This document shows positions 27,809 through 47,026 of a stretch of DNA of 64,000 nucleotides, piece after piece. The notes below the pieces were generated by a model. That model was not told where the DNA came from. It ran no database searches and saw only the letters and a list, made by a program, of their open reading frames with translations. The stretch's first letter is position 1; each line of letters begins with the position of its first letter. The position numbers and the translations under genes were made by a program. Where the stretch lies: assembly GCF_041886205.1 (NCBI RefSeq), contig NZ_CP169029.1, one strand, 5' to 3'. Source of the stretch: Escherichia coli (GTDB lineage Bacteria > Pseudomonadota > Gammaproteobacteria > Enterobacterales > Enterobacteriaceae).

Positions 27809-27885
27809 GGCTACGTAGCTCAGTTGGTTAGAGCACATCACTCATAATGATGGGGTCACAGGTTCGAATCCCGTCGTAGCCACCA
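27809..27885 (+). tRNA. metT: tRNA-Met (elongator, anticodon CAU)
   Basis: 77-nt GGCTACGTAGCTCAGTTGGTTAGAGC...GTAGCCACCA, anticodon loop CTCATAA. Confidence 0.95.
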
Positions 27886-27893
27886 TCTTTTTT

Positions 27894-27978
27894 GCGGGAG
27901 TGGCGAAATTGGTAGACGCACCAGATTTAGGTTCTGGCGCCGCAAGGTGTGCGAGTTCAAGTCTCGCCTCCCGCACCA
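27894..27978 (+). tRNA. leuW: tRNA-Leu (anticodon UAG)
   Basis: 85-nt GCGGGAGTGGCGAAATTGGTAGACGC...CTCCCGCACCA with long variable arm; anticodon loop TTTAGGT. Confidence 0.95.
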
Positions 27979-28001
27979 TTCACCAGAAAGCGTTGTACGG
28001 A

Positions 28002-28076
28002 TGGGGTATCGCCAAGCGGTAAGGCACCGGTTTTTGATACCGGCATTCCCTGGTTCGAATCCAGGTACCCCAGCCA
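28002..28076 (+). tRNA. glnU: tRNA-Gln (anticodon UUG)
   Basis: 75-nt TGGGGTATCGCCAAGCGGTAAGGCACCGGTTTTTGATACCGG...CCCCAGCCA. Confidence 0.95.
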
Positions 28077-28110
28077 TCTTCTTCGAGTAAGCGGTTCACC
28101 GCCCGGTTAT

Positions 28111-28185
28111 TGGGGTATCGCCAAGCGGTAAGGCACCGGTTTTTGATACCGGCATTCCCTGGTTCGAATCCAGGTACCCCAGCCA
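28111..28185 (+). tRNA. glnW: tRNA-Gln (anticodon UUG)
   Basis: Identical copy of the glnU sequence. Confidence 0.95.
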
Positions 28186-28200
28186 TCGAAGAAACAATCT

Positions 28201-28277
28201 GGCTACGTAGCTCAGTTGGTTAGAGCACATCACTCATAATGATGGGGTCACAGGTTCGAATCCCGTCGTAGCCACCA
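28201..28277 (+). tRNA. metU: tRNA-Met (elongator, anticodon CAU)
   Basis: Identical copy of the metT sequence. Confidence 0.95.
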
Positions 28278-28324
28278 AATTCTGAATGTGTCGAATATGT
28301 TCGGCAAATTCAAAACCAATTTGT

Positions 28325-28399
28325 TGGGGTATCGCCAAGCGGTAAGGCACCGGATTCTGATTCCGGCATTCCGAGGTTCGAATCCTCGTACCCCAGCCA
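28325..28399 (+). tRNA. glnV: tRNA-Gln (anticodon CUG)
   Basis: 75-nt TGGGGTATCGCCAAGCGGTAAGGCACCGGATTCTGATTCCGG...; anticodon CTG is wild type (not the supE amber-suppressor allele). Confidence 0.95.
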
Positions 28400-28436
28400 A
28401 TTTATTCAAGACGCTTACCTTGTAAGTGCACCCAGT

Positions 28437-28511
28437 TGGGGTATCGCCAAGCGGTAAGGCACCGGATTCTGATTCCGGCATTCCGAGGTTCGAATCCTCG
28501 TACCCCAGCCA
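28437..28511 (+). tRNA. glnX: tRNA-Gln (anticodon CUG)
   Basis: Identical copy of the glnV sequence. Confidence 0.95.
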
Positions 28512-31410: not shown

Positions 31411-31561
31411 TTCTCAGGCCCGCCGTTCCGGTGGGCCTTGTTTTTCTCTCTTTATCCCCATCTTTATCGCAATGCTTGCGCCTTTTTCCTGTGGCGTGAA
31501 TAATTTCCTTATAGGCCGGTGAATGTTCAGCTTCCGGCGGCATACAGATAAGAGGAACGGT

Positions 31562-35712: not shown

Positions 35713-35993
35713 TTGTTATACAAGGCAAAGCTTGAACCAGCATCAGTACAACCCGGTTGCACCACAGCAATCCACCGGTAGCACCAAAAGAGTGCATTTT
35801 AAGAATTTTGCTTCGGAATGGTGCGGTGCACCTCGCAAAAACAAACAATAAAACATCAATATCTTTACATTTAGCCAAACTAAATGTTACCTAACAGGCA
35901 CAACACTGCACAATAAAGTTGCAGACAATAACAACACAAACACTCACAACGGGTATCCATGCGTTCTTAACGCAGAAGATAAAGGAGTTGGAT

Positions 35994-40347: not shown

Positions 40348-42018
40348 ATGGATAATGCAGAACTCGCCATTGGTATCGATCTCGGTACTACCAATAGTTT
40401 AATTGCCGTCTGGAAAGACGGTGCCGCGCAATTAATTCCAAATAAGTTCGGTGAATATTTAACACCATCCATAATTAGCATGGATGAAAACAATCATATT
40501 TTAGTCGGAAAACCGGCTGTATCACGGCGTACTTCGCATCCGGATAAAACGGCAGCGTTATTTAAACGTGCAATGGGCAGTAATACCAACTGGCGGTTAG
40601 GCAGCGACACATTTAACGCGCCAGAACTGTCCTCTTTGGTATTACGCTCATTAAAAGAAGATGCCGAAGAATTTCTGCAACGTCCGATTAAAGATGTGGT
40701 GATCTCCGTTCCGGCTTATTTCAGCGATGAACAACGCAAGCATACCCGTTTAGCAGCGGAGTTAGCCGGGTTAAATGCGGTACGCTTAATTAATGAACCC
40801 ACAGCAGCTGCGATGGCACATGGCCTGCATACGCAACAAAATACCCGCTCGCTGGTTTTTGATCTCGGTGGCGGCACGTTTGACGTCACGGTGCTCGAAT
40901 ACGCCACGCCGGTGATTGAAGTTCACGCCTCCGCTGGCGACAACTTTCTTGGCGGCGAAGATTTTACTCATATGCTGGTGGATGAAGTTTTAAAACGCGC
41001 CGCAGTGGCTAAAAACATGCTCAACGAAAGTGAGCTGGCAGCCCTGTACACCAGCGTGGAAGCGGCAAAATGCGGCAATCAATTACCGCTGCAAATTAGC
41101 TGGCAGTATCAGGAAGAAACGCGGGAATGCGAATTTTACGAGAACGAACTGGAAGATTTGTGGTTGCCGCTGCTCAATCGCTTGCGAGTGCCGATTGAAC
41201 AGGCGTTGCGCGATGCGCGTCTGAAGCCGAGTCAAATCGACAGTCTGGTGCTGGTTGGCGGCGCGTCACAAATGCCGCTGGTGCAGCGAATCGCCGTGCG
41301 TCTGTTTGGCAAATTACCGTATCAAAGTTACGATCCGAGCACCATTGTCGCGCTGGGCGCAGCAATCCAGGCCGCCTGCCGCTTACGCAGTGAAGATATT
41401 GAAGAAGTGATCCTCACTGATATTTGCCCTTACTCGTTGGGTGTTGAAGTTAACCGTCAGGGCGTATCCGGCATTTTCTCGCCGATTATTGAACGAAACA
41501 CCACAGTACCGGTGTCGCGTGTAGAAACTTACTCGACCATGCACCCGGAGCAGGATTCAATTACGGTTAACGTCTATCAGGGAGAAAACCACAAAGTTAA
41601 AAATAACATTCTGGTGGAATCCTTCGATGTGCCGTTGAAGAAAACCGGGGCTTATCAGTCGATTGATATTCGCTTTAGTTATGATATCAACGGGTTGCTT
41701 GAAGTTGACGTGCTTCTGGAAGACGGCAGCGTTAAGTCCAGAGTGATTAACCACAGCCCGGTAACATTGAGCGCACAGCAGATTGAAGAGAGTCGGACGC
41801 GGTTATCCGCATTGAAAATTTATCCGCGCGATATGCTCATCAACCGTACCTTTAAGGCCAAACTGGAAGAGTTGTGGGCGCGGGCGCTGGGTGACGAGCG
41901 AGAAGAGATCGGCCGGGTGATCACCGATTTTGATGCGGCGTTGCAGTCAAACGATATGGCCCGCGTCGATGAAGTTCGTCGACGGGCGAGCGATTATTTG
42001 GCTATTGAGATCCCTTAA
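40348..42018 (+). CDS. hscC: Hsp70-family chaperone HscC
   Basis: 556-aa ORF MDNAELAIGIDLGTTNSLIAVW; Hsp70 ATPase signatures (IDLGTTNS, DLGGGTFD). Confidence 0.95.
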   Translation: MDNAELAIGIDLGTTNSLIAVWKDGAAQLIPNKFGEYLTPSIISMDENNHILVGKPAVSRRTSHPDKTAALFKRAMGSNTNWRLGSDTFNAPELSSLVLRSLKEDAEEFLQRPIKDVVISVPAYFSDEQRKHTRLAAELAGLNAVRLINEPTAAAMAHGLHTQQNTRSLVFDLGGGTFDVTVLEYATPVIEVHASAGDNFLGGEDFTHMLVDEVLKRAAVAKNMLNESELAALYTSVEAAKCGNQLPLQISWQYQEETRECEFYENELEDLWLPLLNRLRVPIEQALRDARLKPSQIDSLVLVGGASQMPLVQRIAVRLFGKLPYQSYDPSTIVALGAAIQAACRLRSEDIEEVILTDICPYSLGVEVNRQGVSGIFSPIIERNTTVPVSRVETYSTMHPEQDSITVNVYQGENHKVKNNILVESFDVPLKKTGAYQSIDIRFSYDINGLLEVDVLLEDGSVKSRVINHSPVTLSAQQIEESRTRLSALKIYPRDMLINRTFKAKLEELWARALGDEREEIGRVITDFDAALQSNDMARVDEVRRRASDYLAIEIP

Positions 42019-42024
42019 ACACGA

Positions 42025-42058
42025 CTGCCGGATGCGGCGTAAACGCTGCATCCGGCAT
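42025..42058. repeat. REP palindromic unit between convergent hscC and djlC
   Basis: GCCGGATGCGGCGTAAACGCTGCATCCGGC. Confidence 0.7.
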
Positions 42059-42077
42059 CGGCGCAAAAAACACATCG

Positions 42078-43529
42078 TCAGCTAAACAACATCGCGATTT
42101 TGCCGAGAGCATAACCTATCACCAGCACCGTTAAACTGATTTTGATAATGCCGGTAATGCTCTGTGGTTTTTCATCCTCATCATGTATTTCTTCATGGTT
42201 TTCAGGTGTTGGCTCATCGACATCTTCATCCTCCGGCTCCAGTTTCACTTTCGTCAACAGCATCCGGGTGACAATGGCCTCTAATGGATGAGCATCTCCG
42301 CCTTCCAGCCTTGTATTAAGACGGGCCAGCATCTCTTGTTTCGGAAACGCTTCAAGTACTACCTGTTCCGCTACCCGATACAAATCCAGTAACGGTGAAT
42401 CTTGCTCTGTCTCGCTACCGACTCTCGATTTCCACCACGCCCATGCTTTGCGTTTGAAGAATAACGACTCAATAAACGATTGACCTAACGGCGATAATTT
42501 TCCGCTATGTAAAATCTCCGCCCATAACAGCCGCGTCCGGGCGCTCTCACCAGGAACATATTTCAATGGTTTACCTTGCGCATCTACCATGCTCTGCGCT
42601 TCGATAACCATCACTAATAACGCGAAATAATCTGGGCAATGACGCTTACTCCACTGCAACAACAAATTATCAGCTTGTGTAGATGGGTAACTTTCCCGGT
42701 ACGCGCAGAGATCGGCAAGCAGGCTTTCCCCCTCGCCGCAGTACAACCTTTGAGCACACAAGTAATATCGGGCATCTTCGCTTTCTGGTTCTTCCATTTG
42801 CCACTGTTTGGCTACAGGAATGAGTTCCGCCATACCTGTTTGCACCGAGCTGTACCAGCGCAACAGTTTGCGATGTAACTTTGCATCATCAGGAATGAAC
42901 CACGGACCTTCCATCGCCAGAAACGCAGTGACATAGTCAGGATGGTAACGGCAGCAACGTTCCAGCGCGAAGTAATACTCAACCGTCTGGTTCTGCAACG
43001 CAACGGGAAATTCCAGAAGGCTAAGGAAATCGAAACAATCACCAGCCTGAATGGCCTCAAGAAAAGCCTCCCTTTCTTCCTCATCCATTCCTTCGCTGTC
43101 ATTAAACGAATGCCAGTTCAAACGCTCTGCCAGCAAAGAAGCACAATTTAATGAAAGATATCGCGCTTCTATAGCGATTGCACACAGCGGCCAGCGTAAT
43201 TGATAGACATCCTCCATGTTCCAGGTATTTAATTGCTGAATAAATTTCTGCCAGGCGGAGGGCTGAAAACGATCACTTTCTGAATCCAGTAATGTCCTGA
43301 ATGCACGTAGTATTTCATGTTCAGCGGCGGCATCTTTATCTTCATTATCTGCTTCCTCGACAGGATTTACCGCCAGTCGCAGCGCCTCTTCATAGGCCTG
43401 GCGTAATGCTTTAAACCCTTGCGGATCGGTTTCGGGATGACATAACGGTAAGCGAGCAAGATAAGCCTGGCGGATAATGTCTATTTGCGTCGTGCTTTCA
43501 ATTTCGAGGATTTGCCAACATGTTTTCAT
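42078..43529 (-). CDS. djlC: J-domain co-chaperone DjlC (YbeV), C-terminally tail-anchored
   Basis: 483-aa [38 protein letters not shown]; C-terminal hydrophobic segment [22 protein letters not shown]. Confidence 0.9.
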
Positions 43530-44233
43530 AGGTCGCTCACATCCTTAAGCGTTACCGGGCATTCAGGCTGGGCAGTTAATGGCTGCCAGGGAAGCGTGGC
43601 ATAGAAACGATCGCTTCCCGCTGCCAGCTCTTCGAACATCCGACTCCCGGCGCTATCGTATTTGTACAGGGTTAGCGCCTCGCGTAGCGAAGTGTTGTCT
43701 TCGCACTGAGAAGATTGCCAGTAGAGACGTCCTAACGAATAGGCAGAAAAATAGTGCATCCAGCTGTGATAGTAATGGTGAGCTCGTACATAGACGCGCG
43801 ATTGCAGCCATAAACTCTCTTCTTCCGTCAGCCACTTGTTGAGCACACCGACCCGTGACAGAAACCCCATTCGAACATAATCCCAGGCTTTGATTCCCCC
43901 TTCTCCACAGCACATAGCGGTTTGGGCAACGAATTGGGTATAAATCAACCCTCTCTCCGAGCCACCAGCAATTAATGCTTTCCACTCTTCAGGGGAAGAG
44001 CGATGCCATGTCAGATATAAGCCAGCTAAATCATTGGCATGACCATCATCAGTCATCTGATAAATAGTCTGAATTAAATCATCACGATTATTTATTCCCT
44101 AGGATGATGAGAGATCGAATTCTTTTATCCCGGTATACATTTTTGGCGAGTCATGCGCGGGTTTGCAACCCTGATTAAGTATTTCCATGGGCGCAGAAAG
44201 CGCAAAAAGAAGATATTGTTCATCCTTATTCAT
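43526..44233 (-). pseudogene. ybeU: DUF1266 protein YbeU interrupted by in-frame amber codon at codon 45
   Basis: Reading frame from ATG at 44233 ([23 protein letters not shown]...EFDLSSS) hits TAG at 44099..44101, then continues in the same frame to stop at 43526; paralog ybeR has Trp at the equivalent position. Confidence 0.65.
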
Positions 44234-44334
44234 TTGTTAATAATCCCTTAAGTGCATTAACTGACTACTTTTTTATTATTGATAAGTATAAACTTGACGC
44301 TTTCAAAATAAAAAGAAAATCGAAGTATTCACAT

Positions 44335-44889
44335 ATGAATAAAAAATTAATGTATATATTCTCAATATTTATAGTTGCAGCAATTACCTGTATTAGCCAA
44401 CCCAAGAAAACAACGTTGCGTGATAAAGCCATGGTGAATTATGCCTTAGATTATTTAAGCTCACCGGGCAGTCTTCCATTCACCACGGCGGCCACGGAGC
44501 TTTCCGCGATTCATGGTCACTCAACGTCGCAATATCGCCTTGGAGAATTTTATCTTCATGGTAGCGACGGTAAACCACTGGATTATACACAGGCGAGATA
44601 CTGGTATGAGCAATCAGCGGAACAGGAAAATCCACGCGCGCAAAGTAAACTGGGGTGGATCTACCTCAAAGGTCTGGGGGTCAAACCCGACACCCGTAAA
44701 GCAATTCTCTGGTATAAGGAAGCAGCTGAACAAGGGTATGCTCATGCTCAATATACTTTAGGTTTGATCTACAGAAATGGCTCAGGTATTAATGTTAACC
44801 ATTATGAATCTCAAAAATGGTTAAAACTGGCCGCCAAACAACATTACAAAAATGCGGAAAGATTACTTGCCGGGCTTCCCGCACATTAA
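44335..44889 (+). CDS. ybeT: Sel1-repeat protein YbeT
   Basis: 184-aa ORF with signal/TM N-terminus and Sel1-like repeats ([27 protein letters not shown]). Confidence 0.85.
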
Positions 44890-44898
44890 CGTCGACTG

Positions 44899-46322
44899 TC
44901 AACCGAACAGATGGAGTATTTTCCCTATCAAACCAGCAAAGATAAAAATATAGAAAATAATTTTAATGATGCCCAGACAGCCTGGCCCACCATCGTCAAC
45001 GGGCATTGGCTGCGGTTGCGGCTCCGGTTCAACAGTTTGCTTCTCGGTAAAATTCGCCGCCTGAATTAATAATCGACGAATAATTAATGCTTCCAGTGGA
45101 CAACGATCTTCTGCATCAAGGCGGCTCATAATCGGCATTAATGATTCTTCTGTTGGTTGGCCTGCACTAATTGTTTGGCAACTAAATATAATGGCCATAA
45201 GGGATGTTCTGTATCACGCGTGAGTGAGATCCGCGGCTTACGTCCTTTGTGCAAAACCATCTCGACCAGTGAACGCCCCAGAGCAGAGAGTTTTTCATCG
45301 CTGAGTATTTCGTATAAATGAAAACGCGTACGGGCGCTGTCGCCGGGGATATAAAGTAGCGGTTTTCCCTGATCGTTAACCAGTTCACGAGCTTCAATCA
45401 TCATCACCACTAACGGGTAATAATCGACCCGATGCTGACGGCACCATTGCAATATTAAAGCATCCGCCTGGGTGGAGGGATACTCGCGCCAGTAGTCACA
45501 AAGTTCTGCCAGCAAGCTTTCGCCTTCTCCACAATAGACGCGTTGTGCGTATTCATAATAACGCGCATCTTCATTATCAGATTCAGCTTCCCGCCACGAC
45601 CGGGCGTAATCCAGGAGTTCGGGAATTCCCAGGCGACCTGCGCTATACCAGCGGAGTAAATTTCTGTGCAGTTTTGCATCATCGGGGATAATCACTGCGC
45701 GATGTTGCGCTAAATACAATGTCAGCCATTCTGGATGCGATGACCAAATCCGAGCGAACATTTGGTAAAAATCGATGGTGTCATTTTGCACGGCAACGGG
45801 CAGATGCAGAATGGTCTGGAAGTTAAAAACATTCCCCTTCGCAATGGCATATAAAAAGGATTCCAGTTCTTCTTCGTCTATTTCCCCGGTATTTTCCTCC
45901 TGTAACCACCGCAATCTTTCTGCTAATAACACCACGCACTCGAAGGATAAATGGGCCGTGTTCATGGCTATTGAGCACAGCGACCAGCGTAATTCATCAA
46001 TCTCATCCATCGAGCAATAATTTAATTGCTGAATGAATCGCTGCCAGGCGGAGGGCAGAAAACGTTCACTATCAGAGGCAAGTAACGCACGAAAGGCGAG
46101 CAGAATTTCATGTTCTGCTACCTCATATTCTTCTGGTTGCCAAACAGATTTAGCAGGCGACTGCGCAATCCGGAGCGCTTCCTCATACGCCTGACGAAGT
46201 TGTTTAAAACCCTGCGGATCGGTTTCTGGATGAAAGGACGGTAACAGCGCCAGATAAGCGCGGCGGATAATATCGACGTCAGTCGTTTCCTCTATTTCGA
46301 GAATCTTCCAGCAATTTTTCAT
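44899..46322 (-). pseudogene. djlB: J-domain protein DjlB (YbeS) split by a frameshift at a CCAA tandem repeat
   Basis: N-terminal 394-aa ORF (46322..45138) and overlapping 99-aa ORF (45198..44899) in another frame are both collinear with paralog DjlC; total span 1424 nt is not a multiple of 3. Confidence 0.65.
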
Positions 46323-47026
46323 AGGTCGCTCATATCCTTAAGCGTTTCCGGGCATACAGAATAGTAAGCCAATGGTTGCCAGGACAAGGTGGGGTAATAC
46401 GCATCATCACTGGCAAATAATTGATAAAACATATCATTGCCGGAATCGTCGTATTCTTTACGCGCTAAGAATTCACGTAATAACTGCAGATTATCATCCT
46501 CGGGAGACTGCCAATATTGCCGACCAAAGGTATAACCGGCAAAGTATTGCCGCCAGTTACGATAATAACGTAGAGCCCGTAGATGAATGCGCGACTGGAT
46601 CCATAGACTTTCTTCTTCGCTCAACCAGTTATTAAGTACGCCCATTCGGCTTAAAAAACCCATCCGGACATAATCCCAGGCTTTAATTCCTCCCTCACCA
46701 CAGCATTCGGCGGTGCTGGCGACAAATTGCGCATAAGCCTGACCTTGCTCATTTAGTTCAGCAAGATAGTCACGCCATTCACACGGAGAATAACGAAACC
46801 AGCGGTGATAAAACCCTGCCAACCGAGCGGCATGACCGTTATCGATCATTCGGTGAATTGTGCGCAGCAGGTCATCACGGTCATCAATTCCCCATGAGGA
46901 AGAAAGGTCAAAAAAGCATGTACCTAAATACATTTTGGGTGATGAATGCGAAGGTAAACAGCATTCATTGCGTATTTCCATCGGAGTTGACAGAGCAAAC
47001 AGTAATTTTTGCGACTCCATGTCCAT
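46319..47026 (-). CDS. ybeR: DUF1266 protein YbeR
   Basis: 235-aa ORF, paralog of ybeU; stop overlaps djlB start (4-nt overlap). Confidence 0.85.

Follow-up and report, generated by a model that had tools for sequence, protein, structure and literature searches.

A clade-restricted amber codon in ybeU, very probably an inherited pseudogene of one Escherichia coli lineage

The ybeU locus and its interrupted frame

The window, a stretch of 64,000 nucleotides of Escherichia coli DNA, contains the gene order rihA-hscC-djlC-ybeU-ybeT-djlB-ybeR-ybeQ, as judged from Pfam hits and from the annotation of near-identical RefSeq genomes (Table 1). The function of YbeU, a DUF1266 protein, is unknown. Its frame runs on the minus strand from the ATG at 44233 to the TGA at 43528..43526, and is interrupted by the TAG read at 44101..44099, after which the same frame resumes as GINNRDDLIQTIYQM... 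and stays open as far as the TGA. Beyond codon 45, the frame is 98% identical to intact YbeU. The stop is premature, in frame and inside an otherwise full-length homologous ORF, as expected of a nonsense pseudogene.

An earlier note, made from the letters of the window, had described this amber codon in a 235-codon frame and had attributed it to a single G-to-A change, on the ground that the paralogue YbeR has Trp at the aligned position. The sequence bears out both the stop and the Trp of YbeR, and LHM10-1, the nearest relative with an intact ybeU, with C at plus-strand 44100 (TGG on the coding strand), supports the single-base origin. The 176-aa ORF starting at Met60, which the note had also mentioned, is found in the ORF list.

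Table 1. Features of the ybeU region and of the tRNA-Gln genes in the window
Feature	Position	Strand	Description
tRNA-Gln(CTG) genes (two), glnV/glnX type	28325..28511	+	Wild-type anticodons, no supE
hscC, Hsp70 partner of DjlC/DjlB	40348..42018	+	ORF list, Pfam; private Y158H at 40819
djlC, intact J-domain co-chaperone gene, 483 aa	42078..43529	-	ORF list, Pfam
ATGA overlap, ybeU stop/djlC start	43526..43529	-	Sequence; site of translational coupling
ybeU pseudogene	43526..44233	-	235-codon DUF1266 frame, interrupted at codon 45
Residual 176-aa ORF from Met60 (hypothetical restart product)	43526..44056	-	ORF list
Amber TAG, ybeU codon 45	44099..44101	-	Derived T vs ancestral C at plus-strand 44100
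N-terminal 44-codon fragment, product of the native start	44099..44233	-	ORF list; SD -5.2 kcal/mol at start
djlB, truncated, 394 aa, without C-terminal tail anchor	45138..46322	-	475 aa in LHM10-1
(GTTG)2 repeat in djlB (CAAC on coding strand)	45152..45159	-	4-bp slippage deletion; LHM10-1 has (GTTG)3
ybeR, intact DUF1266 paralogue	46319..47026	-	59% identical, Trp at 45

The locus contains two similar pairs of genes. YbeR has the length of YbeU (235 aa) and the same DUF1266 span (41-216), and ybeR overlaps djlB, a gene for a DjlB/C-type J-protein, by the same ATGA-type 4 nts (46319-46322) as ybeU overlaps djlC. The two pairs differ in which member is damaged, ybeR being intact but its partner djlB broken, and the ybeU/djlC pair showing the reverse. 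A PADLOC search with YbeU, DjlC, HscC and YbeT gave no match to a defence system, with a sub-threshold PtuA hit for YbeT only.

Conservation and predicted structure around codon 45

With the Trp restored, YbeU matches the Pfam family DUF1266 (PF06889) over residues 41-216 with an E-value of 3.5e-45 and 154.8 bits against a cutoff of 27, and the TAG sits right at the beginning of the domain. S44, W45 and I47 never vary in an alignment of 26 homologues (40-98% identity), which come from Escherichia, Salmonella, Citrobacter, Kluyvera, Leminorella and a metagenome. The AlphaFold2 model of YbeU built from this alignment is confident (mean pLDDT 85.6, pTM 0.86) and all-alpha, with predicted helices at residues 3-11, 14-19, 42-45, which holds W45, and 50-62 (pLDDT about 95), followed by ten more. 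A sequence search of the PDB found no relative. An invariant motif, the start of the domain and a confidently modelled helix hence all suggest that the stop lies at a damaging position.

Distribution and ancestry of the amber allele

A 1001-base query covering ybeU (43400-44400) was run against 5,426 complete E. coli genomes, none of which matched it at 100%, the best differing by one base. The 61-mer centred on the TAG is exact in two of the 4,263 locus-bearing genomes, 6EVA and wlxctx60, and 4262 of 4264 matching records are one base off this 61-mer. Both carriers are complete RefSeq genomes, the former from human faeces in Singapore and the latter from faeces of an Asiatic black bear in Japan, and in both PGAP flags ybeU as pseudogenic on account of an "internal stop" (SE698_RS05855 and AC6IW3_RS05845, respectively). 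They have the TAG at codon 45, the (GTTG)2 frameshift in djlB and the gene neighbourhood of the window, from which they differ by private SNPs only. LHM10-1 encodes an intact YbeU of 235 aa (WP_089601905.1), with the locus, length and djlC overlap seen in the window. Its ybeU, annotated as a functional CDS, has TGG at codon 45 and differs from the window by one base over 43400-44400.

In a base-by-base alignment, plus-strand 44100 is T in the window, 6EVA and wlxctx60 and C in LHM10-1 and the outgroup PT62. The three carriers differ from each other at 10-14 sites per 25 kb (the window at 10 from wlxctx60 and at 14 from 6EVA), from LHM10-1 at 23-25 sites (23 for the window) and from PT62 at about 227. 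Three derived bases are common to them, at 35927, 44100 and 44448. The first is A in the amber clade and G in LHM10-1 and PT62, while the last (T>A) is a change in ybeT, F38L at codon 38, on the same branch as ybeU W45amber.

The allele extends beyond complete genomes. The exact 176-aa ORF is called on 186 public contigs (e.g., EKI54955.1, from "E. coli N1", and KHG91239.1), and five sampled contigs from different projects all share this TAG, each adding 1-4 private SNPs over 5.5 kb. Comparison with ybeU of other E. coli, which the earlier note had proposed, hence yields TGG in intact relatives, as in every orthologue inspected, and the same TAG in seven assemblies beyond the window (6EVA, wlxctx60 and the five contigs). 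In GenBank, the residual ORF (e.g., EKI54955.1) is often entered as a protein, sometimes under the name "putative tRNA ligase", which is unsupported by Pfam, where DUF1266 is the only hit, or by structure searches.

Because the carriers share the TAG yet hold private SNPs, the allele is inherited. As judged from these alignments, W45amber is shown to have arisen once, on the branch to a small E. coli clade that has since diversified. Its members are the window, 6EVA and wlxctx60, together with the carriers found among the public contigs, roughly 186 in number. The source strain of the window has its own SNPs relative to the four compared genomes, namely ybeQ A234V (47891) and synonymous changes at lnt V339 (35075) and gltJ P170 (37581). 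This makes it a separate member of the clade, identical to no complete RefSeq genome. Dated roughly with commonly quoted E. coli substitution rates, the pairwise divergence of 4-6 x 10^-4, recombination being ignored, suggests an age of centuries to about a millennium for the amber allele.

The linked djlB lesion

Every carrier of the ybeU amber codon examined also has the (GTTG)3>(GTTG)2 frameshift in djlB, by which DjlB loses its membrane tail anchor, and the remnant encoding this anchor lies inside an ORF at 44899..45198. PGAP labels djlB as "frameshifted" in 6EVA, wlxctx60 and PT62. PT62 and LP5-1, pigeon strains that are more distant and have an intact ybeU, share the deletion, but the closer LHM10-1 group lacks it. 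Since slippage in a repeat may be recurrent, the deletion in PT62/LP5-1 may equally well reflect recurrence or common ancestry, i.e., an older polymorphism. The amber lineage thus keeps one DUF1266 gene, ybeR, and one J-protein gene, djlC, from different modules.

Can a functional YbeU still be made?

The earlier note had left three options for the interrupted frame: a null allele, a restart at Met60 or a sequencing error. The first is the best reading, the second is unlikely and the third is excluded.

A restart at Met60 (ATG 44056) would yield a 176-aa YbeU with some function and would preserve the coupling to djlC. This is the most tenable of the alternatives, even if the odds are clearly against it. 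E. coli is well known to reinitiate translation after early nonsense codons, the restart proteins of lacI amber mutants being the classic example, and ybeU has the same layout of an early nonsense codon with an in-frame ATG a few codons on. This ATG, the first start codon 3′ of the TAG, lies 42 nts past the stop, and no carrier examined has a break in the 176-codon frame. Unlike in the lacI restarts, however, the candidate start has no SD-like element and the segment lost belongs to a conserved domain. No SD pairing was found in the 17 nts upstream of Met60, where the duplex energy is +0.4 kcal/mol against -5.2 for the native ybeU start, the native starts of ybeU, djlC, ybeR and djlB ranging from -5.2 to -6.8 kcal/mol. 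Furthermore, two out-of-frame SD-like starts sit between the TAG and Met60, opening ORFs of 2-3 codons. The Met60 product would be without positions 2-20 of the DUF1266 profile (about 19 of 175) and the invariant S44-W45-x-I47 motif and, according to the model, without the helices at 3-11, 14-19 and 42-45 and nearly all of that at 50-62. None of the proteins in the 26-homologue alignment is a full-length homologue that starts naturally at Met60. An efficient or useful restart at Met60 is therefore unlikely.

Readthrough of the amber codon, by a suppressor tRNA encoded elsewhere or by near-cognate decoding, would have to give useful amounts of full-length YbeU, and is less probable still. Basal readthrough of UAG exists in E. 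coli, and the suppressor check covered the glnV/glnX region, with serU, tyrT, leuX, trpT and others lying outside the window. Within it, the earlier note had read the glnV and glnX anticodons as wild type, with no supE suppression from these loci, and it was right to do so: both tRNA-Gln genes (28325-28399 and 28437-28511) have CTG, and the supE-type CTA was found at neither. Amber suppressors are rare among natural isolates and, position 45 being invariantly Trp, a Gln, Tyr, Lys, Ser or Leu inserted there would probably harm the protein. Nor is the TAG conserved: the 61-mer that holds it is missing from all but two of the matching records, and the codon is TGG in every orthologue inspected. 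Programmed recoding, which would call for a conserved stop, was considered and is ruled out by the confinement of the TAG to one small clade. The two tRNA-Gln genes belong to a seven-gene tRNA cluster at 27809-28511, Met-Leu-Gln-Gln-Met-Gln-Gln in the metT-leuW-glnU-glnW-metU-glnV-glnX arrangement, in which all anticodons are wild type.

An error of sequencing or assembly in a strain that really has TGG can be dismissed, for although the window has a homopolymer of private length at another site, about 31440 (T5 vs T6), the TAG is a substitution in non-repetitive sequence, is always linked to the djlB frameshift and to the clade SNPs at 35927 and 44448, and recurs in two complete genomes that were sequenced independently and in five assemblies from different projects, each with private SNPs. 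These independent assemblies effectively answer in the negative the case that the earlier note had set against its own reading, that of CCA in place of CTA at plus-strand 44099..44101. The T5 run itself (31435-31440, in the miaB-ybeZ intergenic region; T6 in wlxctx60, 6EVA, LHM10-1 and PT62) comes directly after a GC-rich inverted repeat and is either real or a homopolymer sequencing artefact.

Overlap with djlC and possible polarity

The overlap of 4 nts by which a DUF1266 gene runs into a downstream J-protein gene recurs among distant homologues, at 6711-6714 in contig L013 and at 985-988 in contig L014. These two homologues come from Leminorella richardii, at 43% identity, and from a metagenome, at 40% identity, and in the metagenome contig an Hsp70 gene adjoins the pair. 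Such an arrangement points to DUF1266 and DjlB/C-type J-proteins as a probable coupled two-protein module, and this conserved coupled pairing supports the view that YbeU would work with DjlC and HscC.

The stop in ybeU may consequently reach beyond ybeU itself. With 573 nts left untranslated ahead of djlC, polarity is possible, and djlC is possibly affected by it. With regard to Rho polarity, the stretch past the TAG contains 22% C and 27% G, with modest C>G windows only, and djlC has its own SD (-6.8 kcal/mol). For both E. coli junctions, ybeU/djlC and ybeR/djlB, a small hairpin was predicted whose loop exposes AGGA. Predicted RNA structure at these two junctions was no better than in shuffled controls (z of -0.19 and -1.21, respectively), hence nothing indicates that structure blocks the start of djlC. 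A promoter and terminator scan of 41900-44500 gave fewer hits than shuffled sequences and nothing useful.

Dispensability of the operon

Lists of the H-NS and LeuO regulons include the ybeU-djlC operon, whose expression goes up only 2.8-fold upon SlyA overexpression (PMC5797941). An hns mutant of strain 042 has a DUF1266 gene among its most strongly de-repressed genes (PMC7582179). HscC, DjlB and DjlC escape detection by quantitative proteomics, while deletion of hscC, or of djlB and djlC together, leads to Cd2+ sensitivity, and in the same review HscC is also tied to UV resistance (PMC8215388). About 20% of complete E. coli genomes gave no megablast match to ybeU. In addition, many YbeU/YbeR-like proteins with independent truncations turned up among the homologues from E. 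coli and Shigella, several on megabase contigs. Loss of ybeU would be tolerated because the operon is silenced by H-NS, poorly expressed and dispensable, and because the intact paralogue ybeR and the J-protein gene djlC remain.

Substitutions within the clade

Beyond the stop itself, ybeU shows no positive sign of decay, the downstream frame being fully open in all carriers. This appears to fit a fairly young lesion and, equally, some residual constraint. The three ybeU substitutions in wlxctx60 and 6EVA are two synonymous changes and the conservative E202D, and one of the five sampled contigs (L012) has P25L, upstream of the stop.

The surrounding genes were also compared. Eight of the 18 within-clade SNPs in 25 kb fall in hscC-djlC-ybeU (40348-44233), which makes up 3.9 kb or 15.5% of the length and holds 16% of the differences between PT62 and LHM10-1 (Fisher p = 0.006), although the test was post hoc, five of the eight come from 6EVA alone and without this genome the count is 3 of 10. 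Three of the 18 lie in ybeU (p = 0.036). Non-synonymous changes account for five of the eight, namely hscC Y158H in the window and hscC E256K, djlC A413T, djlC W103S and ybeU E202D in 6EVA. Relaxed selection in the clade was considered on the basis of this enrichment and is not relied on, the signal being post hoc and driven by 6EVA; relaxed constraint may extend to the whole HscC system, which is a lead only. As for the 6EVA cluster, import by recombination was rejected: djlC W103S is unique to 6EVA among 4357 genomes and was hence not imported from a sampled lineage. The cluster may be an assembly error.

Interpretation and significance

Considered together, these observations make it very probable, on sequence evidence, that ybeU is here an inherited, lineage-specific pseudogene and most likely a null allele. 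One C>T transition at plus-strand 44100 turned the invariant Trp45 into an amber codon (TGG>TAG on the coding strand). Translation from the native ATG would end with the release of a 44-residue fragment, the remaining 573 nts would be largely untranslated and the translationally coupled expression of djlC may drop. The pseudogene status of the allele is already known, in that RefSeq annotates the same TAG in this way, and the amber codon is an ordinary case of the routine decay of a silenced, dispensable accessory gene. For annotation, it follows that ybeU should carry a pseudogene label in this strain and that neither the 44-aa nor the 176-aa ORF should be entered as a gene. The haplotype combining W45amber with the (GTTG)2 repeat of djlB provides a convenient marker for one E. 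coli sublineage.

It is conceivable, if rather doubtful, that the two duplicated modules of a DUF1266 protein and a J-protein have decayed reciprocally, with ybeU and djlB lost and YbeR and DjlC left. Alternatively, the excess of private substitutions could mean that the clade is discarding the whole HscC system. The natural ybeU/djlB double mutants are possible test strains for the role of DUF1266 proteins in the HscC/DjlB/DjlC system, for example in Cd2+ assays. If HscC still works in these strains, the reciprocal decay would amount to genetic evidence from nature that one module can stand in for the other and that DUF1266 proteins are generic partners of DjlB/C-type co-chaperones.
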